Origin: Acidobacteriota bacterium
GTDB taxonomy: Bacteria > Acidobacteriota > UBA4820 > DSQY01
Assembly: GCA_049591295.1 (NCBI GenBank)
Contig: JBAWEQ010000080.1
Location: 2,238-66,237, forward strand
Reading direction: 5' to 3'
DNA length: 64,000 nucleotides
Shown here: in pieces, positions 4,818 through 61,830 of the stretch
Numbering within the stretch: the stretch's first letter is position 1
Layout of the letters: every line of letters starts with the position of its first letter
The notes under the pieces: generated by a model
The model's database searches: none
Told to the model about the DNA's origin: nothing
Seen by the model: only the letters and a program-made list of their open reading frames with translations
Program-made: the position numbers and the translations under genes

Positions 4818-5174
4818 GGGAAAGGCCGGAATTCAGAAGGCGAAAAGAAAAGGCAGACCACAGAGGCGCAGAGGCACAGAGATAGGGTGGGGCGTGCCGG
4901 GACCTCGCCCGAGATGTTCCCGGGGCTACCCGCTGCGGGCAGCCCTCAGAACGACGCCCACACCGACAATGCGGCGCCCTCCCGAGACCTCCTCCAGGGG
5001 GTCGCTTGCTCAGGATCCCGTCGTGCCCGGAACTGCGTCGTCTTGCACCGGCGGGATTCCGTGTCAGCCGCCCGCTGTAGGCTTGCCACGGAATGACGCG
5101 GCGGGAAGCGTCTCGCTTCTCGCGTCTCGCGCCTCCCTCCACCGTCCCGCGCCCCCGTGCTATCCTGAATCCCC

Positions 5175-5981
5175 ATGGATGCGACCCTGGCCACCGGCGT
5201 GAAGCTCGAGAAGATGCTCCTGAACCGCGCGGGCAGGGCCATCGCGGATTTCGACCTCATCCGAGAGGGAGACCGCGTGGCCGTGGCCCTCTCGGGCGGG
5301 AAGGACTCTTTCAGCCTGCTCAGGCTCCTCTTCCTGCTCCAGCGCCGCTCTCCGGTCTCCTTCGAAATGACGGGGCTCACCATCCACAACGGCTCCGACC
5401 TGTTTCAGGCGGACCTCCTGGAGGAGTACTGTCGCCGCGAGGGCATCCCCCTTCACGTGGAGAGGACCTCCCTCGCGGCCGTCGTGGAGGAGAAGCGGCG
5501 GCCCGGCTCCCCCTACTGCTCCCTCTGCTCGCGCCTCAGGCGGGGAGCCCTCTACGGCGCGGCGCAGGCCCTGGGCTGCAACAAGCTCGCCCTGGGGCAC
5601 CACCTGGACGACGCCGCCGAGACGCTCCTCATGAACCTCTTCTTCGAGGGGAACCTGAAGGCGATGCCCCCGAAGCTGCTGGCGGAGAACGGCAGGATCA
5701 CGCTGATCCGTCCCCTGTTGTACGCCCCCGAGGCCCTGCTCGCCGACTACGCGCGCGAGCAGGGATTCCCCGTCATCGACTGCGGATGCTGGCTCTGCGG
5801 GGAGCAGGAACAGGAGAGGGCGCGGATGAAGGCCCTCATCGCCGAGGTGTCCGGGCGCTACCCGAAAGTTCGTAGCTCCATCCTGTCGGCCCTCACGAGG
5901 CTGGAGCCCCGGTTCCTCATGGACCGTCGCCGGCACGATTTCGAGGAGGAGGAGGCCCCCCGTGGAACCCCTGAAAGCTGA
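5175..5981 (+). CDS. ttcA: tRNA 2-thiocytidine(32) synthetase TtcA (PP-loop ATPase)
   Basis: PP-loop SGGKDS, CSLCSRLRRGALY and C-terminal CGCWLCGE Fe-S cysteine motifs. Confidence 0.85.
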   Translation: MDATLATGVKLEKMLLNRAGRAIADFDLIREGDRVAVALSGGKDSFSLLRLLFLLQRRSPVSFEMTGLTIHNGSDLFQADLLEEYCRREGIPLHVERTSLAAVVEEKRRPGSPYCSLCSRLRRGALYGAAQALGCNKLALGHHLDDAAETLLMNLFFEGNLKAMPPKLLAENGRITLIRPLLYAPEALLADYAREQGFPVIDCGCWLCGEQEQERARMKALIAEVSGRYPKVRSSILSALTRLEPRFLMDRRRHDFEEEEAPRGTPES

Positions 5982-6465
5982 AGACCTGCGAGAGCTCTCG
6001 CGGCGCATCAGCCAGTACCGGCTTTTCTTCTGGATCTACGTCGCCTCGGCGGCCTTCTACGCGGCCAGCGCCGCGGCCCTGACCGCGCAGACCCGGCCGT
6101 CCCCCTACCCGCTCGCCGACGGTTCCCTCGCGTTCGGCCTCTTCGCCCTGCTCGTCGTCTTCCTGGGCCGCTGGGCCGCCTTCCGCCCCTCGGCCCTCCG
6201 CCGTCTACAGTTGGACTCGATGCAGAAGATGGTCCGCTACATCTTCTTCACGTGGCTCTTCCTGTTGGCCATGGGCGAGAGCCTGGGCATGACGGCGGTC
6301 ACGGCGGCGGCCCTGGGTGCGGGGCCGCCCTGGAAGATGCTCCTGCTGTGCCTCTGGCAGGTGCTCGCCGGACTGGTGCTCACCCCAGAGCGGGCGCACT
6401 GGGACCGCGTGCTCTCTCTCTGGCAGCAAACCTTCCCCCCCCCGACCGATAGGAGGATCCCATGA
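5962..6465 (+). CDS. Hypothetical polytopic membrane protein
   Basis: 167 aa, several hydrophobic helices, GC3-rich codon use, 4-nt overlaps with both neighbours (operon-like). Confidence 0.4.
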   Translation: MEPLKAEDLRELSRRISQYRLFFWIYVASAAFYAASAAALTAQTRPSPYPLADGSLAFGLFALLVVFLGRWAAFRPSALRRLQLDSMQKMVRYIFFTWLFLLAMGESLGMTAVTAAALGAGPPWKMLLLCLWQVLAGLVLTPERAHWDRVLSLWQQTFPPPTDRRIP

Positions 6466-6908
6466 GCCGTTCCCTGCTGCGCACCGCTCTGGTCGCCGCG
6501 GCGCTGTGCCTCTCGCTTCCCTTCAGCGCCGAGTTCTCGTGCAACCGCTACGACTTCGCGCTGAACCGGTTCATCCGCCTGGACGCCAAGGCGGGCGACC
6601 TGGCGATCCAGGACGTGGAGTTCCTGTTCCCCTCCTACATCGGTCCCAAGAAGCTGGACATCGAGGGCCGAAACGAGGCCACGGTGGACGTCAAGAATTA
6701 CGGCACCGTCCCCCTTAGGGTTCACGTGGCCATCGCCCTCTTCGACGCCAGCGGCAACCTGGTGGGGTGCGGCGCGACGGGGAGCAAGCTCGGGTACACG
6801 CGCGCCGGAGAGGGCGAGGACTTCCACGTCACGTTCAACTACGTGCACTCCAAGCTGATGAGCGCGAAGTACTTCTACCTGACCGTGGAGACCGAGCCCG
6901 CCAAGTAA
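6462..6908 (+). CDS. Hypothetical secreted protein
   Basis: N-terminal signal peptide MSRSLLRTALVAAALCLSLPFSA; beta-rich composition; no recognisable family. Confidence 0.5.
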   Translation: MSRSLLRTALVAAALCLSLPFSAEFSCNRYDFALNRFIRLDAKAGDLAIQDVEFLFPSYIGPKKLDIEGRNEATVDVKNYGTVPLRVHVAIALFDASGNLVGCGATGSKLGYTRAGEGEDFHVTFNYVHSKLMSAKYFYLTVETEPAK

Positions 6909-8484: not shown

Positions 8485-8589
8485 GAGCAGGGCGCTGGAC
8501 GGGATTGGCGAGACGCGAGACGCGAGAGGCGAGACGCAAAAAGCGCGCCCCTTCGTCTGGCGGCGTTTGGCTTTCTGCGTGGCCCCGCC

Positions 8590-12072: not shown

Positions 12073-12909
12073 TCAGGAGGCGTGCTTCTCCCCGGGATGA
12101 TAGAAGGGGGTCGCCGCCACGTCGCCCCCCATGGACTTCCACATATAAAACCAGCTCTTGGCCGCGTCGGAAACGGCGTGCGAGAGGACCACCTCGGCCA
12201 CGCCGAAGGCGTTGGAGCGGTCATCGAAGGTACTCGAGGAGACCCGCTTCCCGTGCGGGAAATAGCAGAAAAGCACCGCCTGCTCGTAGCGCGGCATGCC
12301 GTCCAGTCTGTGGATCAGGTAGGACCGCAGGTCCCCCGTCAGGGGCGGGCTGTCGTACCCGTCGAAGACGACCACCATGAGGGGCAGCTTGCGCTCCATG
12401 TAGGCGAGGTAGTCCGCCCGCACCTGCGCGGCCCTCGGATCCTGGCCCGCCCGGAGAGGATCGTTGAGCAGGTAGATGAGCCCGGCGGTCATCCCCATGT
12501 GGTAGGCCACCTGCTGGAACGGTTCCGTCGTCTGGAGAAGGGTGGGGACGAGGTCGAATTCCCGCACCGCCGCATCGAGGATGTCCGCCGTGGGCCTGGG
12601 GGCATAGCCCGCCAGGGCGTCGGACACCCCGCGATCCAGGTCAGTCCGATAGGCCAGCAGGGCGTTTCGGAGCGCCACCGGCGCCAGCCGCAGGGTCAGG
12701 TCCGTCATCCTCTTCGTGGTGGCGGGGCCGTAGGCGGCGTCCGCGGGAGCCGCGGCCGGGATGGGAACCGCCGGCGCCAACAGGAGAAGCCCGGCGAGGA
12801 AGAGAAGGAGACAGGGAGACAGGGAGACAGGGAGACAGGCGAAAAAAGGAAAGAGCCGGGGTACCGGGAGGCAGGGGAACCCAGGAGTCGCGGTCATTGG
12901 CTTTCTCAT
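12073..12909 (-). CDS. Hypothetical secreted protein; (GGAGACA)x4 heptamer repeat in the region encoding its signal peptide
   Basis: C-terminal globular 278 aa of the artefactual ORF 12073..14259, starting MRKPMTATPG...; the upstream remainder of that ORF is antisense to icd. Confidence 0.45.
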   Translation of the reverse strand: MRKPMTATPGFPCLPVPRLFPFFACLPVSLSPCLLLFLAGLLLLAPAVPIPAAAPADAAYGPATTKRMTDLTLRLAPVALRNALLAYRTDLDRGVSDALAGYAPRPTADILDAAVREFDLVPTLLQTTEPFQQVAYHMGMTAGLIYLLNDPLRAGQDPRAAQVRADYLAYMERKLPLMVVVFDGYDSPPLTGDLRSYLIHRLDGMPRYEQAVLFCYFPHGKRVSSSTFDDRSNAFGVAEVVLSHAVSDAAKSWFYMWKSMGGDVAATPFYHPGEKHAS

Positions 12910-12968
12910 GGTCTCATCTCCGGCGTGGCGACCCCGTCTCTTTTCCCTGTTTCGCTGTCTCTCTGTTT

Positions 12969-14387
12969 CTACCCTTTCATCTGCGCGATGACGGCGTCCC
13001 CGAACTCGGAGCACTTGAGCTCCTTCACGTCCTTGTGGCCCTCCGCCTTCATGAGGCGGGCGAAGTCGTACGTGACGGTGTGGGCGGCGATGGCGGATTC
13101 GATCCCCTTCACGAGCAGGTCGGCCGCCTCGGTCCACCCCAGGTGCCGGAACATCATCTCGCCCGAGAGGATGACGGAACCGGGGTTGACCTTGTCCAGG
13201 TTGGCGTACTTGGGCGCCGTGCCATGAGTGGCCTCGAAGATGGCGTGGCCCGACACGTAGTTGATGTTCCCGCCGGGGGCGATGCCGATGCCGCCCACCT
13301 GCGCCGCAAGGGCGTCCGAGAGATAGTCTCCGTTCAGGTTCAGCGTGGCGATGACGTCGAACTCGTCGGCCCGGGTGAGGGTCTGCTGGAGGGTGATGTC
13401 GGCGATGGTGTCCTTGAGCATGAGCTTGGACTTCCACTTGCCGTCGCCGTGGGTGGGCCAGAGCTTGAGGGTGTCCGCCACCTCCCGGACGATCTCGGCC
13501 TTCTTGTCCGGCGCGAACATGTCCAGGCCGGGCTCGATCATGCGGGCGTTCTCCTCGTCGCTCAGAGCGGGGTTCGCCTCCTTGTTGCCGAGGATCCAGC
13601 TCTCCCGGATCGTCACGGTCTCGCTCCGGAACTCCTCCGCCCCCACCTCGTAACCCCAGTCCTTGAAGGCGCCCTCGGTGAACTTCATGATGTTGCCCTT
13701 GTGGGTGAAGTTCACGCTCCTGCGGCGGTTCTTGAGGGCGTACTGGATGGCGGCGCGGCAGAGACGCTTGGAGCCGTCTTCGGAGACGGGTTTGATGCCG
13801 ATGCCCGAGGACTCGGGGAACCGGATCTTCTTGACGCCCATCTCCTTGATGAGGAAGTCGATGACCTTCTTCACCTCGGGGCTGTAGGCCTTCCACTCGA
13901 TGCCGGCGTAGATGTCCTCGGTGTTTTCCCGGAAGATCACCATGTCCACCTTCTCGGGGTGCTTCACGGGGCTGGGCACACCCTTGAAGTACTTCACCGG
14001 TCGCAGGCAGACGTAGAGATCGAGGAGCTGCCGGAGGGCCACGTTCAGCGAGCGGATGCCGCCGCCGATGGGAGTCGTGAGGGGGCCTTTGATGCCCACG
14101 AGATAGGTCTTGAAGGCCTCCACCGTGTCGTCCGGAAGCCACTCCCCGAACTTGTGGAAGGACTTCTCGCCGGCGAACACCTCCATCCAGGCAATCTTCT
14201 TCTTGCCCCCGTAGGCCTTCTCGACCGCCGCGTCCAGCACGCGCTGGGAGGCGCGCCAAATGTCGGGGCCCGTGCCGTCGCCTTCGATGAAGGGAATGAT
14301 GGGGTGATCAGGGACCTGAAGCTCCCCGCTTTTCATCTGAATGGGGGCGCCTTCCTTGGGTGGGGTGAGGGTCTTGAAAGTAGCCAC
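12969..14387 (-). CDS. icd: NADP-dependent isocitrate dehydrogenase
   Basis: 472 aa; typical dimeric prokaryotic IDH motifs ([15 protein letters not shown]). Confidence 0.95.
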
Positions 14388-14766
14388 GGTCGTACCTCCT
14401 CTGGTGGAAGCGGGCGAAGCGCTGGTCCTGTCCGGAGCTACCCCCTGGGATCCCCATAAAAGGGGGTTTCGCCTTTGCCCGGCAAGGCTTGCATGGGTTC
14501 CGCACCCGCGTCAGCCCCGTAGTATAGCCGTGCGCCGGGAGGGGGGTCAACTCGGTGACAGATCAGGGCTGATAGGTGAGGGAAAAGGGACAGGGGACAG
14601 GGGAAAGTGAGGAGCCGGAAGCCGGCAAGGCGGTGGCCTTGTTCAATTCGCGATTCAAATCCTCCGTGTCTTGGCCTCTCCGTGTCGTATTTCTCCTGAC
14701 TTCCGCCTTCACCCTCCCCCTGCCTCTATTGCCAGGGTTCCCTAGCTATCCTATGATGAGTCTAAA

Positions 14767-16635: not shown

Positions 16636-16873
16636 GAGGGTAGGCGGAAGGAAAGGATTCACCACCGAGACACCAAGGCACGAAGGAATTAGAGATCGGG
16701 GCTTCTCAGCGCCCTCGTCTCTTGCCCCTTGCTCGCCGCAATGTGGGAGATGCCTCGATGATCGTTCTCCAGAACGCGATCCTTCGAAGGCCCATTTATC
16801 ATCCATTCTCCATCATCCTCCTGTCCCCTGTCGCTCGTCCCCTGCTACAATAGGCCCGGGGAGGTCCCTCTCG

Positions 16874-19563: not shown

Positions 19564-20045
19564 GGAGCCACCACCAAGGCCCCAAGACCCGAAGGGGAGA
19601 CTGAGGCAGTCAGGAGGCAACCGACAGGGCAAGCTCCGCGATCTTCGCGTCTCGCGTCTCGCCTCTCGCCTCTCGCCTCTCGCCTCTCGCGTCTCGCGTT
19701 TTGCGTTTCGCGTTTTGCCTCTCGCTCCTGTCTGGGGCAAATGGCGCTTCGGGGATAGAGTCCGGTTCACGGCGGGCCTTTCCTCTGCCACGGGCCGGTG
19801 GGCGCCCTTGATCCGCCTCTCCAAAGGAGGAGGGCGGAAGGCGGGTGGGGCATTTACCACCCTCCAGCCCCTCGCAGGCTGGCCATGGGGTTCCACCCGA
19901 GGGGGCGGCGTTATATTAGGCCCCTGGTTGTCGCGGGGCCTTGCAAACCAGGACAAAGGGGAATTGGGTGAGCCACCACGATCTACATTCCCGCTCCCAG
20001 CGCGGCCCGTCACAGGTTTCGATCCAGGGCCTCTTTCCCAGGCGA

Positions 20046-20995: not shown

Positions 20996-21183
20996 AGGCT
21001 CATGGCGAATTCAACAAGACGGCCGACGGCGAGCCGCTTCGGGATGCCGAGATGAGGAGATGAGGAGATGTCGAAGGGAACCGGCGGGAGGTGCTGCGGG
21101 TTCTTCTTGTCCCCCGTCCCTTGTCCCCTGTCCCCTGTCGCGCCTCGCGCTCCTCACTCCTCACTATCCCACGAGGGTCCCAC

Positions 21184-23044: not shown

Positions 23045-23140
23045 AGAACCACCAAGACACCAAGACACGGACAGACCTGGGGTCCTTTGCAGCCGAGGAT
23101 TTCTTCTTGGTGCCTTCGTGCCTTTGTGGTGAATCCTTTT
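23045..23140. repeat. REP-like palindromic element inserted between korB and korC (caccaagacaccaag / cttggtgccttcgtgcc arms plus GGTGAATCCTTTTCC tail)
   Basis: Inverted copies of the CACCAAGACACCAAGG family seen at six other gene 3' ends in this window. Confidence 0.7.
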
Positions 23141-49361: not shown

Positions 49362-49454
49362 GAGACGCTGTCTCCACGGCAAGTATGCTTCCCATGGCGC
49401 AACCTCGTCGAGCCAAGAATGCGGCACGGGGAGCCCCTAACGCCATTCCGGCAG

Positions 49455-51080: not shown

Positions 51081-51934
51081 CGAAACAGGCTCACCTTTCT
51101 CACCGCGAAGTTCCAGACGAACACCAGCGCCGTCGTGATGAGCTTGGAGTACAGGTAATAAAGGCCGGCCACGCTGGTGAGGAGCCACATGGAGAGATCG
51201 TTGAGCCCTAGCCCTAGCACGCCCACGAGCGCGAAGAGTCCAAATTCCACCCAGCGGTTGCTCACTGCTCGCTTACTGAACACCCACAGGACGCTGAAGG
51301 TATAGTTGATGATGAGCCCCACCACGAAGGCGAGGGTGGCCGAGGTGAGGTAGTAGAGGCCGCCGTAATGGGTGAGGGCGTACAGGAGCCCGAAATCTAT
51401 TACGAAAGCCGCCCCGCCCACCACCGTGTAACGGAAGAATTGGACCAGCGTGCTCTCGGTAGGCGTGCCGAACAAGTCCTTCAGGATGGTCTTCACCTCT
51501 TGGCCAGCCTGCCATATATCGGAGCGCAGATCCCCTTTCGACTCCCGGAAGACGAAGCGCCGCATGAGCAGGAAGGAGATCATCGCTGAGGGCAGCGTAG
51601 CCACCGCAGCCGTCACAAGCACGTGTACACCAAGCTCTTTGAAGAGCCTCAGAACCCCTACCCCCACCACGTACATGAAGCCGTAAACCCCGAAAAAACG
51701 CACAATCAGCCGGTTATCACGACTCTTGAAAACGATGGTCCCCGTCGTTTTGAAGTTGAAGAGAATTCCAAGGATGGTCTCGATGAGAGCAGCCAGAGCA
51801 TAGTGCAGGCCCAGCAGAATGAAGAGGGCGAAGACCGAGTAGCCGAAGAGGGTGTTGATACCGCCCACAAAGAGGAAGCGGATAAAAGGTACGGCCCAGA
51901 GCCTCCGAATAGTAGCGGGCAGGGCCAGAGGCAT
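51077..51934 (-). CDS. Tandem (duplicated) GtrA-like flippase-type membrane protein
   Basis: Two consecutive GtrA-like repeats each ending in an N(F/Y)xxxxxW(V/I)F-type motif (ILFNFKTTGTIVF; INYTFSVLWVF ... WNFAVRKVSLF); start overlaps the GT2 stop. Confidence 0.6.
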   Translation of the reverse strand: MPLALPATIRRLWAVPFIRFLFVGGINTLFGYSVFALFILLGLHYALAALIETILGILFNFKTTGTIVFKSRDNRLIVRFFGVYGFMYVVGVGVLRLFKELGVHVLVTAAVATLPSAMISFLLMRRFVFRESKGDLRSDIWQAGQEVKTILKDLFGTPTESTLVQFFRYTVVGGAAFVIDFGLLYALTHYGGLYYLTSATLAFVVGLIINYTFSVLWVFSKRAVSNRWVEFGLFALVGVLGLGLNDLSMWLLTSVAGLYYLYSKLITTALVFVWNFAVRKVSLFR

Positions 51935-52956
51935 TACCGGTCCGTGTCGGAGGCCGCTACGTCCCCCGCCTTCTCTGCTTCCCCTTGCTTTCTCGGCTTC
52001 ACAGATCCCGGCTCGTTTAATGGCGGCTCGAAGTTGATCCGTTCCTTCTCGATGACCAGCGGCCGTTTGCGGACGTGCGTGTAGATGAAGCCGATATACT
52101 CCCCCAGAATGCCCGTAAAGAAGAGCTGGATCGACCCCAAGAAAAATACCGCCACCAGGAGTGGCGCAAGTCCAAGCGTGAATTCCTTCCAAAAAAGGAG
52201 CTTGTAGACCAAATACCCCATGCCGACGAGAAAGCTCAGGGCCGACATGGCGAAGCCGAGCATGGTCGCGAGCCTGAGCGGCACCTTGCTGTGGCTCGTA
52301 ATCCCCAACATGGCAACGTCGTACAAGCGGTAGAAGTTATATGTGCTCTTGCCCCTCTTACGCGCAGGTTGGTCGAAGTGGACGAGAGCACGTTCAAACC
52401 CCGCCTCCATGACCAGCCCGCGGAAATACGGATAGGGGTCGTCCATCTTCCGCAGGGCCTCGATGATGCAGCGGTCATAGAGGCCGAAGCCGTAATAATT
52501 CTCGATCAGCTCGATCTCCGAGAGGCGACTCACTAGCCTGTAATAGAACCTCCGGATGGAGTACATCAGCTTCGACTCCCCAGCGCTGCGCTTCACCGCC
52601 AGGACAACCTTGTAGCCCTCCTCCCACTTCTTAATGAACGTCGGGATCAGCTCGGGTGGGTCCTGCAAATCGGCGGCCACGGGTATCACAGCATCGCCCC
52701 GGCATTGCAGGATGCCGTAAACCCCCGACCGCGTTACCCCGAAATTCCGGCTGTTCAAAATCACCTTTACGCGCCTGTCCCGCGCCGCAAGTGTCCGGAG
52801 CTTATCCTGAGTGCCATCCGTTGAAGCGTTATCGATGAAGACGTGTTCATAGACATAATCGTTAAGACCTTCGAAGACCTCCTTTACCCTCGCACACACC
52901 TCCTCGACATTATCAACTTCGTTATAGCAATGGCTTAACACACTCATCAGAACCAT
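51934..52956 (-). CDS. GT2 polyprenyl-phosphate glycosyltransferase (GtrB/ArnC-like)
   Basis: MSVLSHCYNE ... FIDNASTDGT ... AADLQDPPE; C-terminal TM. Confidence 0.8.
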   Translation of the reverse strand: MVLMSVLSHCYNEVDNVEEVCARVKEVFEGLNDYVYEHVFIDNASTDGTQDKLRTLAARDRRVKVILNSRNFGVTRSGVYGILQCRGDAVIPVAADLQDPPELIPTFIKKWEEGYKVVLAVKRSAGESKLMYSIRRFYYRLVSRLSEIELIENYYGFGLYDRCIIEALRKMDDPYPYFRGLVMEAGFERALVHFDQPARKRGKSTYNFYRLYDVAMLGITSHSKVPLRLATMLGFAMSALSFLVGMGYLVYKLLFWKEFTLGLAPLLVAVFFLGSIQLFFTGILGEYIGFIYTHVRKRPLVIEKERINFEPPLNEPGSVKPRKQGEAEKAGDVAASDTDR

Positions 52957-52993
52957 CTATACTCTCCCAACCATTCCATTTCACGCGTGCCCA

Positions 52994-54763
52994 TCATAGT
53001 CCCCTCCTCTGCAAAAGAACCCACAACTTCGACTCAGCTACCTTAGTATAGTCTTTCGCCAACATTGCCGCATAATGCCTTTGCATAAAGGCTGAGGTGT
53101 AGGGAATTACCGCTCTCTTGGGTATCATGATTATATCAACAGTTGCGACAAGCTTCTGCACACTTGGAGCCGTTCTCCCCGTCACATTTCCCGTGTAGTT
53201 CCACATCGGCATATCCCACCGTGCACTGGGCAGGCCAAGTGCAAATGGAAACGGATTGGAGTAATCCATTACCATAATGGTGCTCTTCTCTGTAATTCTC
53301 GGCTTCAGTAGCTTCAGCCCATCCTTAATCCAACAGCAATATTCGAAAGCGGTCATTTGCTTAACCCACGGATTCCTAGATAACAGCGCCGACACCCCCT
53401 CATTCTCGGTAAGCGCCGTCTCCCTGTATCTCTGATAACCCTCAAAAACATCATCAACGGCCGAACATCCGTTCTCCTCCACATTTCCCCTTATGACGAT
53501 TTCCGCGGGTGGCAATATAAGTTCTTCGATGCTCTTCTCATGGAACCTACACTTCTCAATAAGCACGGCGTTGCTTTCCTTCCATGACACAGAATTAATT
53601 ACGCTCGCCACATCCGGGACAAGAACCGTCCCTATTAAAAACACCGCCACCACCCAACCAATCCATAGCTCGCCTCCTCTCTCCGCGCCCCTTGAATCCT
53701 GCCCCATCCCTGCCGGTCCCAAGAGATATCCGGCCGCTAAGCCAATCAACGGGATCTGCACCAACTGACCATTTGTACTTGTTACCATAATACTCGCGGC
53801 AACCACTACCATAACTGTAAGCAACACCCGCTGGGACCGCGGCGTCCAGTCGCGGACCACCGCTGCCCATGCGATAAATAACAGCATCAACGGTACACCG
53901 TTACTGTCCAACACCCGCAACAATCCTTCGATTCTGTCCACAGGCTGATAAAGAGGTTCCATTCTCGACAAATCGCTGAGGTATCCCACAATAGATATTC
54001 TCAAGCTGACCCCAAGCACGAATATGACACCTATTACGCCTATTAGTTTCGCAAGCAGGGCCCACCAACGATTACCTCTAATTATATTAGCATAACACAC
54101 AATTCCACACGCCACCAAGAAAAAATTCATTTTGACATAGAACTCCATGCCAATACAAAGAGAACCCAACATAAAGTTCAGACGATCTAGCCAGTCACAA
54201 TGCACTAACCTTCGTGGGAAGATTTCCTCAACGGCAATAATGCACAGCAAAGCCCAACCTACCCTATCATATAGCATCGCATAGGAGGTGCCCTTGTAAT
54301 GGAAGCCAAGCGGATAAGTGGCAATTGGAAGAACAAAGACCATACTCGACACAAGGAAGCACAACAACGCCGGCATTCTTCTGCTACCAATAGACCAGAT
54401 AGCCGCAGCACTCGTAGCCGCGAAAATGCACATGCCAACAGTGATTGCCTGCACTTTTGGCCCCACTATAGCCATTCCTACTCGTATCAAGTCGAGAAAG
54501 AAGTCCCCATAGGGATAAGAAAAATCAATATGCGCCCTTTGGCCACAACATAGTCGCCAGGCTGCATCCAGAAAGATCGTTGTATCCCAAGGAAACATCA
54601 GTTGATGGCTAAATCCCATTCTGAGGACAATCAATACGGTGATCATAACAACACACGCGAACATGCATCCCCAGAACACATACGCCTTCTTGCTAATACT
54701 ACTCACAGCAAAACGAAGATACTCCTCAGCTCTTTCCAGATCCAACCTATTCCTTTGCATCAT
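52994..54763 (-). CDS. Hypothetical polytopic membrane protein (low GC, about 46%)
   Basis: 589 aa, many TM helices; codon use distinctly AT-richer than flanking DNA. Confidence 0.5.
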   Translation of the reverse strand: MMQRNRLDLERAEEYLRFAVSSISKKAYVFWGCMFACVVMITVLIVLRMGFSHQLMFPWDTTIFLDAAWRLCCGQRAHIDFSYPYGDFFLDLIRVGMAIVGPKVQAITVGMCIFAATSAAAIWSIGSRRMPALLCFLVSSMVFVLPIATYPLGFHYKGTSYAMLYDRVGWALLCIIAVEEIFPRRLVHCDWLDRLNFMLGSLCIGMEFYVKMNFFLVACGIVCYANIIRGNRWWALLAKLIGVIGVIFVLGVSLRISIVGYLSDLSRMEPLYQPVDRIEGLLRVLDSNGVPLMLLFIAWAAVVRDWTPRSQRVLLTVMVVVAASIMVTSTNGQLVQIPLIGLAAGYLLGPAGMGQDSRGAERGGELWIGWVVAVFLIGTVLVPDVASVINSVSWKESNAVLIEKCRFHEKSIEELILPPAEIVIRGNVEENGCSAVDDVFEGYQRYRETALTENEGVSALLSRNPWVKQMTAFEYCCWIKDGLKLLKPRITEKSTIMVMDYSNPFPFALGLPSARWDMPMWNYTGNVTGRTAPSVQKLVATVDIIMIPKRAVIPYTSAFMQRHYAAMLAKDYTKVAESKLWVLLQRRGL

Positions 54764-54824
54764 TACTTACCCCAATCCACTTTCCTATCTACTTCATCCA
54801 CCGCTTCCGGCCCCGCTATCACCA

Positions 54825-55736
54825 TTACCATCCCTCCAGCGCTGTACCAGCGGGGCGTTCCTGCCAATCTTGAAGTGCCTGAGCAATAGAATGAATGTCG
54901 TTCAAGCCCACGACGCTGCTAAGGCGCTCTAGCCTTAGTCCTCCATTCAAGGGTCGCTTAGCCTTTTGATGCAAATTAGCTGTTAGGCATCCATCAATCC
55001 AAGAAGTATCGCCATTCCACCTCTGCACAATCGCTACAGCAAAGTCAGCCCTGCTAAGCAACTCCATTCCGACAACGTTGACAATTCCCTCCGCATTACT
55101 TTCCAGAAGGCCTTTTACCACCTTGGCCAAATCTCGACTGTAGGTTGGAGTCGATATTTGGTCTGAGGGCACTCTAATGTGCTGCCCAGCGTGGAGTTGC
55201 CGAAACAGTCGATATACAAAGTTTTTCCCCCTGTATTCCGGGCCATAGATCCCAGTCGAACGAACAATAAGGGCGCGTCGGTCAGCAGCCAAGACCATCC
55301 GCTCTCCTAGAAGCTTGCTTCTACCATATACCGACAGTGGGCGCGCCGAATCTTCCTCCGAGTAAGGTCCAGCGATACCATCGAAGACATAATCCGAAGA
55401 GAGATATACAAAGCGCCCTCCGCGATTGCTGACCTCCTCCGCCAGGTTCGCTGGAATCGAGGCGTTCGCTCTAAGTGCTCTCTTCTCGTCATCCTCACAA
55501 GCGTCCACATCGCTCCAACCCGCAGCGTATACCACGTGCTTTGGCCTGGCGGCATCAAGCACATCCCTCATTGCAAGAAACCCAGCGCCATTTGTGCGGA
55601 GGTCGATACTTACGACTCCAGCCGTATTTCTTGCCTCGCGATCCACACCTAGCGCAGAATCACCAAGGCACTCCATTAGTGCGCTGCCAACTAAGCCCCG
55701 AGCTCCAACCACTAGCACCGTGCCCACGTCAGCCAT
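54825..55736 (-). CDS. rmlD: dTDP-4-dehydrorhamnose reductase
   Basis: VLVVGARGLVGSAL Rossmann, YxxxK (YGRSK), RmlD-like length (303 aa from the ATG at 55736). Confidence 0.75.
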   Translation of the reverse strand: MADVGTVLVVGARGLVGSALMECLGDSALGVDREARNTAGVVSIDLRTNGAGFLAMRDVLDAARPKHVVYAAGWSDVDACEDDEKRALRANASIPANLAEEVSNRGGRFVYLSSDYVFDGIAGPYSEEDSARPLSVYGRSKLLGERMVLAADRRALIVRSTGIYGPEYRGKNFVYRLFRQLHAGQHIRVPSDQISTPTYSRDLAKVVKGLLESNAEGIVNVVGMELLSRADFAVAIVQRWNGDTSWIDGCLTANLHQKAKRPLNGGLRLERLSSVVGLNDIHSIAQALQDWQERPAGTALEGW

Positions 55737-56178
55737 TCTTGATGGCCCAAGTGTACGGAATCGTGCAGTCATCCCAAGGCAGCCGCTTCATCTCACCTTC
55801 TCTGTATTCTGTCGTGGCGACATTGCATAGCATACTTGGATACACTGCAATGCCCCTGAAGCCGTTCCAGATTGCAGGGGGGATCTGTACAAGGTAATAG
55901 CATTCCGGACCCAGGTATATCTCCTGCACCTCTCCCCGCGTCGGAGAACCCACCCTATCGTCATACAGAACCAGCTTAATAAGGCCATGTGGACAGCAAT
56001 AATTCAGAGTCATCTCGGAATGAAGATGCCACCCCTTCACGACACCCGGATTGATCCACGAGAAATATACCTCACCAACCACCCCGAACTCCTTATCGCT
56101 TCTTTTGATCATATGCATAATTTTGCCACGCTCATCTACGATTATCTCTCTCGCTGCCATTCGCACACCCTCAATCAT
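55729..56178 (-). CDS. RmlC-like cupin (dTDP-sugar 3,5-epimerase / WxcM-type 3,4-ketoisomerase family)
   Basis: 149 aa cupin with GEVYFSW ... GWHLH motif. Confidence 0.55.
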   Translation of the reverse strand: MIEGVRMAAREIIVDERGKIMHMIKRSDKEFGVVGEVYFSWINPGVVKGWHLHSEMTLNYCCPHGLIKLVLYDDRVGSPTRGEVQEIYLGPECYYLVQIPPAIWNGFRGIAVYPSMLCNVATTEYREGEMKRLPWDDCTIPYTWAIKNG

Positions 56179-56206
56179 GGCTCCTCCGCAAATAGCGCTT
56201 GTCTGA

Positions 56207-57067
56207 TCAACCTAACCACCACTCATCACGCATCTTGATTCGCGCCACTATTGATACGACTGTTGTTCTGGCAACATAGTTCAGCACCGCCATTGCGTAT
56301 GCAGCCACCATATCACCTCGCTTGGCTTCATCATGGCCTTTGAAGCTCGAACTTCTAATGAAACGCACGAAATCACAAATCTGGCGCTTTCCAATCTCTC
56401 CACTCCAGGCTTTCCTGGACGCCCGAAATCCACAAAGGACTTCCCCTAGAACAACCATGTCTCCCAATTCCAACAGGCGGACCCAATAATCCAAATCTAT
56501 CATGTAGGGAATCCGTCCATCGAAGCTTCCCGCCACAGCGCTATCAGACCGCCTGAACAACACCGCGCTTGGCTCTCCCACAACGTTGGTTCCATGCCGC
56601 GCCGAGGCCGCTAACACGGCCTGTCTTGCGTATCGACCTGGCTTGAGTGGACAACGCCTCCGAATAAGAATCTGTCCCTTCTCCCCAATTATTCGACGAC
56701 CACATGTAACCAGCGTAATACCGTTGCCTCCTTCGCCTTCAAGCGTTTCCACTTCTCTAGCAATACACATGGGGTCTAGCACATCATCCGCGCATAATAG
56801 CTTGACGTATTTTCCGCTGGCCAGGCTTAGGCAGCGATTCCAATTCGCCTCTGCGCCTATATTCTCTTCATTGCGGTAATGCCGAATTCGCGGATCCACA
56901 AAACCCGAAATAATCTCATAAGTCCGATCAGAGGAGCAGTTGTCGACTACTATCACTTCAACGCTTGGGAAATGTTGCGCCAGGGCTGATTCAAGAGACT
57001 CCAGAATATAAGCCTCCGCATTGTATGTCGGGATGCAGATAGAAACCGTCGGGGTCATTGTTGACAT
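56207..57067 (-). CDS. GT2 family glycosyltransferase
   Basis: VSICIPTYNAEAYI ... VIVVDNCSSD ... CADD. Confidence 0.8.
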   Translation of the reverse strand: MSTMTPTVSICIPTYNAEAYILESLESALAQHFPSVEVIVVDNCSSDRTYEIISGFVDPRIRHYRNEENIGAEANWNRCLSLASGKYVKLLCADDVLDPMCIAREVETLEGEGGNGITLVTCGRRIIGEKGQILIRRRCPLKPGRYARQAVLAASARHGTNVVGEPSAVLFRRSDSAVAGSFDGRIPYMIDLDYWVRLLELGDMVVLGEVLCGFRASRKAWSGEIGKRQICDFVRFIRSSSFKGHDEAKRGDMVAAYAMAVLNYVARTTVVSIVARIKMRDEWWLG

Positions 57068-57339
57068 CTCCCAATGCTACCGTCTCTGACTTACTACTCC
57101 GGCATCATTATGGTATACCCATCACGGGCTAAAACCCTTGTACAGCATTGGCCGTCGGTTTTACAGCTACAACTCTAATGGTGCCTCATTAGTAGGTGGC
57201 TATTGGACAGGCCCCTAACCTCGAACTCCTTCGCGAGATCAACTCCTCCCGTACAGATGTCATTACCCTCCTTCTTACCACCATGCCTCCGCGACTGGAG
57301 TGGTAACATTGTACCAGCGATGCGTTCTCTTCTGAGCAT

Positions 57340-58401
57340 TCAAGGGTTATTCCCCACAACTTCGCCGATCACTTGCTTGACGATATAGAGAGGTCTACGC
57401 TTGGTCTCACGAAAGACACGAGCTAAATACTGCCCTATCAGGCCTAAGGACAACAATTGGGTACCCTCCAGAAACAGAATGACTACAAGAAGTGATGTCC
57501 AACCTTGGATCACCGTCTCTGGATGCATGAGTTTGCTCACAATGAGCCAGACAATCATCACAAATGATCCACACGTCAAAAGAAAGCCTAGCTGCCCCAC
57601 CATGGCAAGTGGCCTATCCGAAAAGCTCGTTATTCCAGCCATCCCAAGCGATATCATCCTTCCAAGGCTATAGTGCGTCCTGCCCGCATAACGTCGGTCG
57701 CGCTCATAATAAATACAGGTCTGCTTGAAACCTATCCATGGGATTAGGCCTCGAAGGTACCGACTTTCTTCTCTCATCGTTCTCAAGATCGTAACGATAT
57801 GCCTGTCCAAGAGCCTGAAATCTCCCGAATCCAGGGGCAAAGAAATGTTGCTCAGTAAGCTAAGGAGTCTATAGTATGTTGTTGCAGTAAGGCGCTTAAA
57901 TGGTGATTCACCCTTTCGACTCCTCCTAACAGCACATACTACTTTCGAGCCTTGTTCCCAATGATCTATCATTGCAGGTATGATTTCTGGTGGATCTTGC
58001 AAATCCGAATCAATGATAACAACGGCATTGCCCCCTGCATAATCTAGGCCTGCGGTAATGGCGCATTGATGACCAAAGTTCCTGGACAAACTAATAACTC
58101 TGACTGTGTTATCACATTTGCAGAGGCCTTCAAGAATATTGAGTGTTTGGTCTTTGCTACCGTCATCGACAAAGACTAGTTCGTGCTCCCAGCCCTTGAG
58201 ACCATCGGCGACTGCTTTAAGTCGCCGATAGAACTCGTGCAGGGTGTCCTCCTCTTGATAAACTGGAGCTACGACGGAAAGAAGCTTGGCCCTCGGCGGC
58301 AGGGCCACTTTTCCCTCCCCTAAACCCTGCTCATTTTCAACAGGGGAGCGCAAGTCTTTACCCGTTGGCACCACCGGCATAGGATTAGATTCCCCTTTCA
58401 A
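57340..58401 (-). CDS. GT2 polyprenyl-phosphate glycosyltransferase (ArnC/GtrB-like) with C-terminal TM helices
   Basis: [14 protein letters not shown] ... VFVDDGSKD ... DSDLQDPPE. Confidence 0.8.
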
Positions 58402-59467: not shown

Positions 59468-59570
59468 CTCGCCCTCCCGTGGGCTGCCGTACAAAATAGC
59501 AAAAAGCGTGCCGCCTATCCGCCCTCCACTCTACACCCTCCACCCTCCACAGCGCTCCACCCGACTGACA

Positions 59571-61388
59571 CTATTTGGAAGTGTACTCATCCCGCAGGGG
59601 GCCGAGCAAGTTTTCGGCGAACTCTTGCCGGTCGAGGAAGGGGGCCATGTCATGGAGCGGGGCCGAGACGATGCGCCCGTCGGAGAGTTGGCGGGAACTG
59701 GGCCTGGGCTCGAAGGTCTGCCGCGGATCCAGCACCACCCTTGCCACGCCGGGGCCCGGCGTGGCAAGGAAGGTCTCAGTCAGGTTCCGGAAGCCCTCTC
59801 CCTCGATCTTTACCGCCGGCAGGCCGTAGGCCTCCGCGAGCCGACAGGGGTCGGGGAAGGAGACGCCACTTTCAGGGCTTTCCCCAATCAGCTCGCCAAA
59901 GAAATTCTTCTGGGTGGTCCGGATGGAGAGGTAGCCGCCGTTGTCGAGGACGAAGAGCTTGACGGGCAGGCGGTGGTGGGCAACGGTCTGGAGCTCCTGG
60001 ACGTTCATTTGAAGGCTCCCGTCCCCGGCCAAGCAGATGACCCGCGCTCCTCCCCGCGCCACGGCCGCGCCGATAGAAGCGGGCAGGTCGTAGCCCATGG
60101 AGGCGCTACCCGAGTTGGAGAAGAGCCTCTGGCCGCGCTTCAGCCTGGCCGCCTGGAAGGGGACGATGGTGGCCGTGGCGTTGCCGCAGACCACCGCGTC
60201 GTCTTCGGTGAGCAGATCGAAGAGCGTCTCCACGAAGTAGTAGGGATTGATGCCCCCCTCGGTGGTCCGCTGGCGGGCCAGGACGGGCGGATAGCGTTTC
60301 ACCCGCTCGCGGCACCACTGGAGCCAATGCGCGTGGCGCCCCGCGTCCCAAGCTTTCGCTTTGAGCTGTCGCCCCATCTCTTCGAGGAAGAGCCCCGCGT
60401 CGCAGGCGATGGCCAGTTCTGGGCGCGCCGTGGGTTTGGCTAGCTCGGCCCGGTCGGCGTCCACCTGAATGAGGAAGGCGTGGGGCGCGAAGGCCGGCCA
60501 GTTGTAGCTCACCTGGCGGATGTTGAGGCGGCTGCCGATCACCAGCAGGCAGTCTGCGTTCTGCACCGTGAAGTTGCCGGCGCGCGTCCCGATGGTGCCA
60601 GGCCGGCCACAGTAAAGAGGGTGATCCGAAGGGATCAGGTCGTGCGTCCAGGCGGTGGTGACCGGGATGCCGAACCGCTCGGCCATGCTCAGGAAAAGGT
60701 CCGCCGCGCCCGCCAGGCGCACGCCAGTTCCGGCCAGCAGGACGGGCCGCTCTGCCGCGGAGAGGCGCTCCCGGGTCTGTCGCACCTGCTCCGGCAAGCG
60801 CCCCAGCTCCCAATCGGGTGGGTCCTCGGAGGGGTCATAGGACCGAAGCGCGTCCGGCTCCACCCTGCTGCCTTGCACGTCGATGGGGATGTCCAGCCAG
60901 CAAGGGCCGGAGCGGCCGGTTTGGCAGAGGTGCCAGGCCTTCTCCAGGTGATAGCGGGTCTCCTCGGGCGCGCGCACCAGGGCGGCGTATTTGGTGATGC
61001 CCTTCACCATGGAGACGATGTCCGCCTCCTGGTCGCCGAGCTGGCGCAGGCCCGGCACTTGGTTGAAGGCCATGCAGGTCTCTCGCTTCACCTGCCCGGA
61101 GATGACGAGCATGGGAATGGAGTCGGTCCAGGCCCCGAAGACGCCGTTGAGGGCGTTGATGCCGCCCGGCCCCGTGGTGACGCTTACGACCCCCGGCGTG
61201 CCCGTGATGCGCGCGTAGCCTTCTGCCGCCATGGCACAGGCCTGTTCGTGGTGCTGGCAGATGGGGGTGATACGCGTCTCCTTGCGCAGTGAATCGTTGA
61301 GGTGCATGGCCCCCCCGCCCGTCACCAGGAAAACGTGGCGAACACCGCGATCGGCGAGGAAAGAGAAGACGTAGTCGGAGAGCTTCAT
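59571..61388 (-). CDS. Thiamine-diphosphate-dependent enzyme of the acetolactate-synthase-large-subunit family (YerE-like sugar C-branching enzyme candidate)
   Basis: N-terminal Pyr domain, central FAD-like domain, C-terminal GDGS...N ThDP motif (AGDGSLQMNVQEL). Confidence 0.8.
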   Translation of the reverse strand: MKLSDYVFSFLADRGVRHVFLVTGGGAMHLNDSLRKETRITPICQHHEQACAMAAEGYARITGTPGVVSVTTGPGGINALNGVFGAWTDSIPMLVISGQVKRETCMAFNQVPGLRQLGDQEADIVSMVKGITKYAALVRAPEETRYHLEKAWHLCQTGRSGPCWLDIPIDVQGSRVEPDALRSYDPSEDPPDWELGRLPEQVRQTRERLSAAERPVLLAGTGVRLAGAADLFLSMAERFGIPVTTAWTHDLIPSDHPLYCGRPGTIGTRAGNFTVQNADCLLVIGSRLNIRQVSYNWPAFAPHAFLIQVDADRAELAKPTARPELAIACDAGLFLEEMGRQLKAKAWDAGRHAHWLQWCRERVKRYPPVLARQRTTEGGINPYYFVETLFDLLTEDDAVVCGNATATIVPFQAARLKRGQRLFSNSGSASMGYDLPASIGAAVARGGARVICLAGDGSLQMNVQELQTVAHHRLPVKLFVLDNGGYLSIRTTQKNFFGELIGESPESGVSFPDPCRLAEAYGLPAVKIEGEGFRNLTETFLATPGPGVARVVLDPRQTFEPRPSSRQLSDGRIVSAPLHDMAPFLDRQEFAENLLGPLRDEYTSK

Positions 61389-61420
61389 GGAAGCCTCTTG
61401 CGGCGGCGCGAGGCGCGAGA

Positions 61421-61700
61421 TGGGATGCGGAGGCGACTCGTAGGAGGCCTCTCCAGAGGCCGATGCGCCGGATTCCTCCCACCCATCGCGCCCTGGAGAG
61501 CGCTCCTACGTGAGGCGGGACGCGAGACGCGAGACGCAAAACGCGAGACGCGAAACGCGAGACGCGAGACGCGAGGCGCAAGACGCGAGCGGCGAGACGC
61601 GAGATGGGATGAGGAGGCGACTCGTAGGAGGCCTCTCCAGAGGCCGATGCGCCGAATTTCTCCCACCCATCGCGCTCTGGAGAGCGCTCCTACGCCGGGC
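61421..61700. repeat. Composite repeat: two about 90-100-bp direct repeats (each with an imperfect palindrome GTAGGAGGCCTCTCCAG / CTGGAGAGCGCTCCTAC) separated by a (GCGAGAC)n array
   Basis: Direct reading of 61421-61510 against 61601-61700. Confidence 0.85.
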
Positions 61701-61830
61701 CGGTGGCGAGAAGCGGGACGCAAGACGCGAGACGCGGGAGACGGGGCGCAAAAGGCGAAGACAGCCTCGAAGTCAGGACGTTGGTGTGACGGAGGGGAAT
61801 GGAAACAAGCTGCAGTGAGGGCCTCTTCCA

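Follow-up and report, generated by a model that had tools for sequence, protein, structure and literature searches.

Oriented tandem arrays of 7- and 8-nucleotide units in the intergenic spacers of an uncultured Acidobacteriota genome

Here we report on short tandem repeat arrays in a 64,000-nucleotide (nt) stretch of an Acidobacteriota genome (assembly GCA_049591295.1, contig JBAWEQ010000080.1, positions 2,238 to 66,237 of the forward strand), the whole of which is called the window below. Its intergenic spacers carry many arrays of directly abutting 7- or 8-nt units, whose purine-rich strand, with few exceptions, runs away from the adjacent gene and whose copy number, and even unit family, differ among close relatives. 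With moderate confidence we read these arrays as hypervariable short tandem repeat families, an acidobacterial counterpart of the short tandemly repeated repetitive (STRR) sequences of cyanobacteria, the orientation of which would have been filtered by selection.

Array census and unit families

Tandem repeats were detected with Tandem Repeats Finder (TRF), which listed 63 rows for the window, and array counts were compared at a TRF score of at least 40 with those in dinucleotide-preserving shuffles of the window. Genes were called with a codon-usage caller trained on the Pfam-confirmed open reading frames (ORFs) of the window. At this threshold 13 period-7 and 6 period-8 arrays were present, against 0.02 and 0.00 per shuffle; nearly all high-scoring rows have one of these two periods, while TRF found no enrichment over the shuffles for periods 5, 6, 9, 10 and 11 in the window. 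Twenty-four of the 26 arrays lie outside called genes in a window that is about 89% coding (binomial P ~1e-21). Where ORFs are overlapped only their last codons are involved; otherwise the arrays are found past a stop codon and ahead of the Shine-Dalgarno motif or promoter that comes next.

A first-pass annotation of the window had described families of perfect heptamers (GCGAGAC, GATGAGG, GGGACAG and GGGTGAA) biased toward gene boundaries. Both TRF and a read-out of the sequence recovered arrays at essentially all of its coordinates, and the boundary bias is real. Perfection is the exception: match values range from 75 to 100%, and perfect periodicity across at least three units is limited to 10 stretches. 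Many arrays do have period 7, but about half of those that it named are octamers, with units CCTCATCT at 2803-2827, GAGATGAG at 21049-21070, GATGAGGT at 27378-27425, CTCATCAC at 36350-36406 and GGAGACAG at 12807-12839. The GCGAGAC arrays at 5110-5131 and 19646-19725 exist as the reverse complement (GCGTCTC and TCGCGTC, respectively). Of two GGGACAG arrays, the one at 16826-16850 is a degenerate trace only and the one at 2831-2850 has about three copies, under the TRF threshold. The GGGTGAA array, given as 12 copies, has 14.7 and spans 37402-37504. Two contacts with stop codons were confirmed, since the TGA (37418-37420) of a family 2 glycosyltransferase (GT2) gene lies within the GGGTGAA array and the TAG (27998-28000) of the rubrerythrin gene is the first triplet of a GCGAGAC array. 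GATGAGG arrays had been placed 10-20 nt upstream of starts; in the purine-rich orientation they lie 10-53 nt past stop codons, and it is the pyrimidine-rich CCTCATCA, TCCATCA and CTCCTCA arrays that end 12-18 nt ahead of starts.

GCGAGAC occurs at 8 loci in the window, GGGACAG-type units at about 6, GATGAGG-type units at about 5 and CACCAAGG-type units at about 7. The last family, with its complement CCTTGGTG, had been overlooked (8 copies at 2890-2953, and further units near 16657, 19566, 23050/23106, 36269 and 40560), as had TCCATCA (4.4 copies), TCCACCC (4.7), CCATTCG (3) and CACAGAGG (2.9). In total, this one genome has ten or more unit families, with units of 7 or 8 nt. The GCGAGAC arrays have no conserved flank or head in the sequence read-out. 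The arrays are not CRISPR arrays, in which repeats of 23-50 nt alternate with unique spacers of similar length; their units are 7-8 nt long and directly abutting.

The window encodes a pyruvate:ferredoxin oxidoreductase (por) cluster, a NuoF-like protein, rubrerythrin, pilB-pilT-pilC-pilS-pilR, glycosyltransferases and asparagine synthase, among others. It holds no rRNA or tRNA genes, and the Rfam search of it was empty at gathering thresholds, with two chance-level matches at E <=0.5. Most array-flanked genes are housekeeping genes (pyruvate:ferredoxin oxidoreductase, rubrerythrin, isocitrate dehydrogenase, purH); some arrays lie near type IV pilus and glycosyltransferase genes. The arrays are as follows.

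2750-2775, plus strand: GGGGACA, 3.7 copies, upstream of the start of a minus-strand gene ending near 2667-2721 and pyrimidine-rich on the sense strand of that gene; canonical G-quadruplex motif.
2803-2827, minus strand: CCTCATCT, 3.1 copies, perfect octamer, complement of the GATGAGG family.
2831-2850, plus strand: GGGACAA/GGGACAG, about 3 copies, under the TRF threshold.
2890-2962, minus strand: CCTTGGTG, 8 copies, then conserved head GTGGTGAATC; right arm of the CACCAAGG hairpin-element family.
4859-4881, plus strand: CACAGAGG, 2.9 copies, 41 nt past a stop codon.
5108-5135, minus strand: GCGTCTC (complement of GCGAGAC), 4 copies, 39 nt ahead of the start at 5175.
8508-8537, plus strand: GCGAGAC, 4.3 copies, 23 nt past the stop at 8484, between convergent genes.
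12807-12839, plus strand: GGAGACAG, 4.1 copies, perfect octamer, paired with 12942-12969 in a predicted long hairpin (minimum free energy, MFE, z = -5.2).
12942-12969, minus strand: TTTCCCTG, 3.5 copies, degenerate complement of GGAGACAG/GGAAACAG, abutting the stop of a minus-strand isocitrate dehydrogenase gene.
14587-14604, plus strand: GGGACAG, 2.6 copies, in a divergent spacer; G-quadruplex motif.
16657-16690, plus strand: head ATTCACCAC, then CACCGAGA/CACCAAGG/CACGAAGG units, 22 nt past the stop at 16635.
16795-16845, minus strand: degenerate ATCATCC and CCTGTCC units about 28 nt ahead of the start at 16874, including the degenerate trace mentioned above.
19645-19725, minus strand: TCGCGTC (complement of GCGAGAC, with GCCTCTC and GCGTTTT variants), 11.6 copies, after CACCAAGG-like units at 19566-19600.
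21049-21070, plus strand: GAGATGAG, octamer, 2.8 copies, 53 nt past a porD-like stop.
21108-21165, minus strand: TGTCCCC, 4.6 copies, then CTCCTCA, 2.3 copies, ending 18 nt ahead of the porA-like start at 21184.
23045-23140, no strand assigned: complete hairpin element with left arm CACCAAGA (2.4 copies), right arm CTTCGTGC (2.9 copies) and head GTGGTGAATCC, inserted in a junction that measures 4-30 nt in relatives.
27378-27425, plus strand: GATGAGGT, octamer, 6 copies, 10 nt past a ferredoxin-like stop.
27442-27472, minus strand: TCCATCA, 4.4 copies, perfect, ending 15 nt ahead of the rubrerythrin start at 27488.
27998-28067, plus strand: (TA)GACGCGA, 9.9 copies, beginning with the rubrerythrin stop TAG and followed by a C-rich tract and then the promoter at 28145-28174.
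32459-32504, plus strand: GCGAGAC, 6.6 copies, 125 nt past the pilC stop.
32668-32702, plus strand: CGCGAGG (GCGAGAC variant), 5 copies, from TRF and sequence read-out.
36269-36292, plus strand: CACCAAGG, 3 copies with head, 41 nt past the stop at 36227.
36341-36406, minus strand: CTCATCAC/CCTCATCA, octamer, about 7 copies, ending 12 nt ahead of the GT2 start at 36419.
37402-37504, plus strand: GGTGAAG (the GGGTGAA array), 14.7 copies, covering the last 19 nt of GT2 with its TGA stop; G-quadruplex motif.
40527-40583, minus strand: CCATTCG (3 copies), CGAAATC (2.1 copies) and CCTTCGTG (3 copies) with head GTGGTGAAT, 38 nt ahead of the start at 40622.
59518-59550, minus strand: TCCACCC, 4.7 copies, 20 nt past the stop of the minus-strand gene 59571-61388 and purine-rich on the sense strand of that gene.
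61515-61604, plus strand: GCGAGAC, 12.9 copies, between two copies of a palindromic element described below.
61706-61736, plus strand: GCGAGAC, 4.4 copies, among the few arrays breaking the polarity rule.

Polarity of the arrays

Scored on the sense strand over the whole comparison set, the arrays nearest a stop codon are purine-rich in 37 cases and pyrimidine-rich in 10, and those nearest a start codon are pyrimidine-rich in 28 cases and purine-rich in 3. The window alone gives a Fisher P = 4e-4; the P values for polarity are indicative only, orthologous spacers not being independent. In each of the 17 spacers with arrays of both types, purine-rich arrays precede pyrimidine-rich ones. Purine-rich arrays start a median of 16 nt from the left gene, and pyrimidine-rich arrays end a median of 38 nt from the right gene. 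The rule is symmetric under reverse complementation, with the purine-rich strand running 5' to 3' away from the adjacent gene and few violators. It persists in convergent spacers, where no start codon constrains the sequence (purine-rich to pyrimidine-rich 9:1 for left halves and 1:2 for right halves), and at 34 unrelated GC-rich metagenomic loci the polarity has the same direction but is weaker (P = 0.013). Units of the pyrimidine-rich arrays have 0-1 G, and these arrays either end 12-44 nt ahead of starts or abut the -35 box of a promoter.

This polarity sets a quantitative constraint on any explanation and argues against transcription-coupled bias, general hairpins and G-quadruplexes. A general property of spacers is ruled out by the array-poor relatives introduced below, the spacers of which are symmetric (purine fraction of the two sides 0.51 vs 0.49, compared with 0.58 vs 0.39 in array-rich genomes). 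A gene-calling artefact was rejected as well: where an array was scored as coding, it is purine-rich and occupies the extreme 3' end of its ORF, and none was found in a 5' extension. Transcription-coupled mutation bias fails by logic, because both flanks of a gene are transcribed in one direction yet are opposite in composition.

The families differ in how they behave next to starts. GCGAGAC, which in both orientations lacks Shine-Dalgarno-like motifs and start codons, is unbiased there (purine-rich to pyrimidine-rich 5:5), whereas the other families together give 2:10; these numbers are small.

Relatives and array turnover

Relatives were found by a PilB-based scan of species-representative genomes and are labelled L001 and so forth. 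The scan places the window within uncultured Acidobacteriota of the class Thermoanaerobaculia, with PilB identities of 98-99% in three metagenome-assembled genomes (MAGs; L001, L002 and L010) and of 70-91% in about two dozen others. The PilB tree is a weak single-gene neighbour-joining tree with the window on an artefactual long branch, so its position was taken from the identities. The window clade, L007, L011-L013, L018 and L027 have 4-8 arrays per 10 kb, and arrays are essentially absent from L003-L006, L008, L009 and L014-L025 (apart from L018, counted as array-rich); on this weak tree array-rich and array-poor genomes interleave.

Stop-to-start gaps at shared gene pairs measure 4-13 nt in the array-poor L006 and L009 (for example TGAAGGGAGCGGCCATG), and the corresponding junctions of the window measure 188, 120, 108 and 191 nt. 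Other array-rich lineages fill these junctions with GGGATTG, CTTTTCA, GGATTTG, CAATTCG and GGAAGGC. Coding density, as given by the first gene caller, is 0.93-0.98 in array-poor relatives and 0.77-0.90 in the window clade. From these comparisons we infer that ancestrally tight junctions were inflated repeatedly and independently. Sister lineages with and without arrays at the same junctions (108-191 vs 4-13 nt) amount to a natural experiment. As no promoter or terminator consensus was found in the inflated operon junctions, the arrays in the por junctions are probably transcribed as intercistronic RNA. The only strong promoter, a perfect sigma-70 consensus TTGACA-18-TATAAT at 28145-28174, lies upstream of pilB. 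This promoter is conserved in L001, L002 and L010, and the arrays directly upstream of its -35 box differ in every genome.

The genes of the three closest relatives share 91-97% DNA identity with the window, and homology stops exactly at the array-bearing spacers. Copy-number polymorphism, which the first-pass annotation had proposed to look for, was found and extends to the unit family. The GGGTGAA array of 14.7 copies has 2-3 copies in L001 and L002 and none in L010. In the rubrerythrin-pilB spacer GCGAGAC numbers 10 copies in the window and 4 in L001, L010 has 3 copies followed by 10 of CACCTAGT, and L002 lacks GCGAGAC and carries CCCTTGT (5 copies) instead. A two-copy proto-repeat, TAGTCCCCTAGTCCCC, is kept in L001 and the window at the site of a ten-copy octamer array in L010; the unit TAGTCCCC, twice in L001 and the window, corresponds to the related TAGTCACC, ten times in L010. 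In these sequences the L010 octamer array can be seen to have grown in place from a local proto-repeat. Elsewhere, the CACTCCT (CTCCTCA) array of L001 and L002, with 5 copies, has as its counterpart in L010 a homogenised CTTCTCA/CTTCTTA array of 16 copies, and the junction at 26843-26890, which is free of arrays in the window, holds two in all three relatives.

Four ENA contigs, each from a different sample, share a rubrerythrin gene with 100% identity. The array pair upstream of the gene is identical in all four, and the spacers downstream are near-identical in three while one differs, these being consensus assemblies. Because arrays differ at about 5% divergence and yet are identical across four samples, their turnover would seem to be quick but unlike the behaviour of high-frequency switches.

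Several purine-rich arrays cross the last codons of ORFs (3792-3834 in L001, 8617-8659 in L002, 8470-8512 in L010 and 37402-37420 in the window). They supply the stop codon or come shortly after it, and one protein accordingly has differing predicted C-terminal tails among relatives. Contigs L160, L071 and L163 end, and L154 and L080 start, within a 7-nt array; such repeats therefore break short-read assemblies. By breaking assemblies and by extending or truncating predicted C-termini, the arrays matter for MAG annotation.

The first-pass annotation had considered heptamer arrays at this density unusual in a GC-rich heterotroph. A GC-rich heterotrophic host does not by itself make them odd: within Thermoanaerobaculia they are lineage-specific, and many metagenomic contigs of unrelated origin have arrays of a similar kind. 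(GCGAGAC)3 alone was found in at least 120 of these, of 26-75% GC, many of which have further heptamer families. Within the class, families are shared by lineages with PilB only 84-89% identical: GCGAGAC in L007, CACCAAGG in L013 and L018, and CTCCTCA in L011 and L013. GCGAGAC was rejected as a special cross-phylum signal, the viral contigs giving 2 occurrences against 1 and 20 for composition-matched control heptamers; it is one of many possible units, and heptamer arrays of many kinds are widespread. In AT-rich contigs (26-44% GC) GCGAGAC/GTCTCGC arrays occupy intergenic DNA (L137 865-905, L143 390-425, L055 701-725 and L072 1023-1100) and contrast sharply with the local composition; other heptamer families adjoin them in L072 and L157.

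Predicted structures and functions

Folding of the array-filled spacers gave MFE z-scores mostly between -2 and +2.3, with the spacer at 12781-12968 (z = -5.2) and one in L007 (z = -2.3) as exceptions. Complementarity between purine-rich and pyrimidine-rich arrays was 0.148 within the same spacer and 0.122 between different spacers (P = 0.28). Long RNA hairpins as a general rule were therefore rejected, z-scores being near zero and same-spacer partners no more complementary than others.

A canonical G-quadruplex motif overlaps 4 of 30 arrays, namely GGGTGAA (14.7 copies), GGGGACA, GGGACAG and the complement of TGTCCCC. These four would suit an action through non-B structures of DNA or RNA, whether G-quadruplex, i-motif or triplex, of the sort suggested for the GGGAATC and GGGGAYT repeats of other bacteria. 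The commonest units, GCGAGAC, GATGAGG, CACCAAGG and TCCATCA, cannot form three-tetrad quadruplexes; with so few arrays concerned the G-quadruplex was dismissed as a general explanation, and non-B structure as a whole is very unlikely to account for the arrays.

We also considered whether the arrays are scars of a directional DNA process at the centres of spacers, such as 3'-end slippage synthesis in break repair or head-to-head telomere-like ends, or else operator arrays with a 7-8-bp register. Ribbon-helix-helix proteins read such registers, as in the heptads of the omega protein and the 8-bp met boxes of MetJ. On such a scheme the purine-rich strand would always end 3' at a mid-spacer break, the lineage-specific occurrence would be that expected from the gain of an enzyme, and the restriction to unit sizes 7 and 8 would be accommodated. 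Directional, telomerase-like growth was nevertheless rejected for want of a gradient of degeneracy (unit mismatch 0.066 vs 0.064 between halves, P = 0.46, 51 arrays). More than ten unrelated families in one genome sit badly with one template or binder, the likeness to operator arrays goes no further than the period, and GCGAGAC did not exceed the control heptamers in the viral contigs (2 vs 1 and 20). We regard scars or operators of this kind as highly improbable.

The first-pass annotation had proposed that changes in copy number modulate the expression of neighbouring genes. Frequent reversible slippage that switches flanking genes, as at classical contingency loci, would be in keeping with the variation in copy number among relatives, with arrays in contact with stops or in the neighbourhood of type IV pilus and glycosyltransferase genes, and with the purine-rich arrays which in relatives cross the last codons of ORFs. 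The positions are wrong for it: none of the arrays occupies the interval from a -35 to a -10 box or the 5' part of an ORF. The flanking genes are mostly housekeeping, and one spacer has identical arrays, with identical flanks, in the four samples. Deleting, shuffling or flipping arrays had no consistent effect on the predicted accessibility of the ribosome-binding site (RBS), which was unchanged in 5 of 7 cases, and 7-8-nt units at about 30 loci per 64 kb do not resemble known phase-variable repertoires. Rehm et al. likewise had a negative outcome for Xanthomonas and Nostoc (PMC4692102). Copy-number switching is thus unsupported, and we hold contingency loci to be a most improbable explanation.

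Direction-sensitive elements acting at the RNA level, either Rho-loading insulators against read-through and antisense transcription or landing pads for S1 and cold-shock proteins (Csp) upstream of the Shine-Dalgarno sequence, would account for a polarity that is strict, symmetric about gene ends and persistent in convergent spacers. The pyrimidine-rich arrays, with at most one G per unit and close to starts or to a -35 box, have a suitable composition, canonical intrinsic terminators are not enriched (12 vs 9.5 expected), and S1, Csp and Csr have been proposed as binders of the TAACTGA repeats of Beggiatoaceae (PMC4679880). No sign of Rho or S1 involvement emerged from this analysis, however, and Rho-loading in the por junctions would bring polarity onto genes that need co-expression. 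Close relatives do without arrays at the same junctions, RBS accessibility was unaltered in most cases, and the units are too diverse for a sequence-specific binder. Such RNA-level elements seem to us unlikely, if conceivable.

Hairpin, REP and REPIN elements

One octamer family, CACCAAGG/CACAGAGG/CACGAAGG, sets itself apart by a conserved head, AAAGGATTCACCAC, and by complete inverted pairs, found at 23045-23140 in the window and in spacer B of L011 and L013. The copies in the window are as follows.

23045-23140, 2890-2962, 16657-16690, 19566-19600, 36263-36292, 40560-40590 and about 6938: octamer-armed hairpin element with head AAAGGATTCACCAC.

The element is present in a junction of L011 and absent from the same site in L013, where the junction is 25 nt long, and its arms co-vary (CAAGG/CCTTG in the window, CAGAGG/CCTCTG in L002). 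Terminal inverted repeats, conserved ends and presence/absence polymorphism, the marks of a miniature inverted-repeat transposable element (MITE), were found in the CACCAAGG subfamily only. It looks like a small palindromic mobile element with octamer arrays as arms and may be an undescribed MITE-like family.

Repetitive extragenic palindromic (REP) elements and REP doublets forming hairpins (REPINs) share spacers and genomes with the arrays and are likewise intergenic and multi-copy. They differ from them as 20-25-nt palindromes with a GT[A/G]G head differ from non-palindromic, head-to-tail 7-8-mers; the arrays are not REPs, and the true REPs of the window, GTGGGGCGGGCGCCCCCGCCCGCC and GTAGGAGCGCTCTCCAGAGCGC, are separate. 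A REP-associated tyrosine transposase (RAYT) gene at 37716-38438, confirmed as Y1_Tnp, is flanked by 7 copies of the GTGGGGCGGGCGCCCCCGCCCGCC hairpin, among them a 45-nt unit repeated 2.7 times at 40339-40458. The REPIN-like unit, in which GTAGGAGGCCTCTCCAGAGGCC is followed after about 25 nt by an inverted GTAGGAGCGCTCTCCAGAGCGC, stands twice in tandem at 61440-61695, alternating with GCGAGAC, and again at 40461-40482. All three REP types tested occur in array-rich genomes only (7 of 10-11), as does the hairpin head; array-poor genomes have none of these elements except for one 21-mer match in L021.

The RAYT gene is also flanked by 21-nt tandem repeats, GCCGAGGGCGGCCGCGCCACA (region 37560-38440). 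The RAYT/REP cassette is present in the window and L010 and absent at the same site in L001 and L002. The REPIN-like unit adjoins GTCTCGC-type arrays in L001 and L010, and its position may hint at a link between REPs and the GCGAGAC family.

If all arrays were arms or remnants of such small palindromic elements, MITE-like or REPIN-like, a palindrome would explain both their polarity and the dispersal of units. This idea draws on the CACCAAGG/CACAGAGG family with its head, inverted pairs, presence/absence in L011 and L013 and co-varying arms, on the long hairpin at 12781-12968, on the co-occurrence of REP/RAYT with arrays and on the 70-75 convergent pairs counted in Xanthomonas (PMC4692102). 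It is weakened by the lack of complementarity between same-spacer arrays, by most array spacers folding no better than their shuffles, by GCGAGAC having neither conserved flank nor head, and by the array that grew in place from a proto-repeat. As a general account we find it quite improbable.

Origin and orientation of the arrays

We return to the reading of the arrays as hypervariable repeat families filtered by selection. They would originate and change size through slipped-strand mispairing or else unequal exchange, in a process that by its nature favours units of 7-8 nt. Such units could not persist within ORFs, where any change would shift the frame, neither 7 nor 8 being a multiple of 3. 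The result would be largely non-adaptive repeat DNA that builds up, along with REP and hairpin elements, in lineages tolerant of longer intergenic DNA, and purifying selection on the transcribed spacer would impose its polarity. On the start side, G-rich units with Shine-Dalgarno-like motifs and ATG or GTG would not be tolerated just upstream of the RBS; this filter has some support, because the signal-free GCGAGAC is unbiased next to starts and the other families are biased. On the stop side, we tentatively suggest that C-rich, G-poor RNA of a Rho-loading kind is disfavoured directly after ribosome release. Any effect on expression would be a graded by-product of spacer length and composition and not an on/off switch.

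Several observations weigh against this reading. A few units recur at many loci of one genome; their recurrence, and their sharing across lineages with 84-89% PilB identity, is not predicted by random local slippage. Next to stops GCGAGAC is biased 16:3, though its two orientations differ little in translation signals. The pyrimidine-rich tract of the rubrerythrin-pilB spacer lies upstream of the -35 box and not in the 5' untranslated region, so a constraint on the RBS cannot explain every case. Polarity reappears where arrays of different units were gained independently, and other phyla show it as well, which would fit a dedicated function or directional mechanism too. To these come the dependence among orthologous spacers and the nature of the assemblies: all relatives are short-read MAGs, several contigs of which end inside arrays, so that long arrays may be collapsed and copy numbers are lower bounds.

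A dedicated function or mechanism is a reading that we consider rather unlikely. The convergent polarity, regained with unrelated units and shared with Xanthomonas and Nostoc, would then mark a dedicated system and not passive filtering, which is improbable. Two versions could be envisaged. The arrays could be direction-sensitive transcription insulators, in which any polymerase coming from outside, sense or antisense, would first transcribe a C-rich, G-poor, putative Rho-loading array. Alternatively, an oriented DNA-level process could act at spacers through a factor limited to array-rich lineages and possibly tied to REP/RAYT. As array-rich and array-poor sister lineages have orthologous junctions, the 35-year-old question of the role of STRR-like repeats would be directly testable there.

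Comparison with known repeats

Heptamer families have reportedly been known since 1990, when Mazel et al. are said to have described several heptanucleotide families of STRRs as dispersed tandem arrays in the non-coding DNA of cyanobacteria, and they are said to have been found over-represented in many bacteria in 2007. The likeness to STRRs pointed out in the first-pass annotation is apt: there is an excess of 7-nt tandem repeats at many non-coding loci, with several families per genome. The host phylum and the units differ, octamers occur as well, and the C-rich tract that follows 28080 is the only place with the STRR1 unit CCCCAGT, in single or double copies.

The heptamers of Xanthomonas (GGGAATC) and Nostoc PCC 7120 (GGGGA[C/T]T) are about 90% intergenic and typically have 3-5 copies, with occasional long arrays; their length and sequence vary among close relatives at the same gene pairs, all functional classes are flanked and no regulatory role was found (Rehm et al. 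2015, PMC4692102). They follow the same polarity rule, with frequent convergent pairs and an average of 28 nt to the 5' neighbouring ORF (PMC4692102). The arrays of the window resemble them in their intergenic tandem 7-nt units, polarity, turnover and convergent pairs. They differ in having at least ten unrelated families instead of one dominant unit, half of the families being 8-nt, in mostly being unable to form G-quadruplexes (motif in 4 of 30), for which four or more copies of a unit with a G3+ run are needed, in their host, which belongs to an anaerobic Acidobacteriota lineage, and in inflating junctions that are tight in sister lineages.

TAACTGA heptamers of marine Beggiatoaceae, some Cyanobacteria and Bacteroidetes have 2-6 and up to 43 copies, mostly directly upstream of starts, and recur in distant phyla without a known mechanism of transfer (MacGregor 2015, PMC4679880). 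GCGAGAC is similarly spread, over contigs of 26-75% GC. There, however, a single AT-rich unit replaces recognisable RBSs, whereas here the Shine-Dalgarno sequence is kept between array and start. Geobacter metallireducens has "global regulator sites" made of paired tandem hepta- and octanucleotides, with 3-5 units of 7-9 nt at dozens of loci. Their families, GTTGCTYN, TCTCCGTS, MTYCTGA and GGGACCG, usually come as pairs, one partner on each strand and the distance between them variable (Aklujkar et al. 2009, PMC2700814). Those sites, unlike the arrays described here, are read as protein-binding and have a copy number that is apparently fixed at 3-5.

Full-text literature searches for these units, and for tandem repeats in Thermoanaerobaculia, returned nothing relevant, and no report for Acidobacteriota was found. 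New here are the phylum, the coexistence of many 7- and 8-nt families, the inflation of junctions relative to array-free sisters and the independent finding of the polarity rule with units that cannot form quadruplexes.

Other features of the window

Two intergenic stretches that are not repeats are conserved, 19726-19945 with L002 and 32760-33226, the second half of the 893-nt pilC-pilS spacer, with L001. Neither contains a called gene or an Rfam match, and they could be leaders or small RNAs. An island at about 42000-58400, with 49-55% GC against about 67%, encodes glycosyltransferases and RmlD-like, NeuB-like, YfhO-like and PMT_2-like proteins; it is essentially devoid of 7- and 8-nt arrays and is probably a horizontally acquired surface-polysaccharide cluster.

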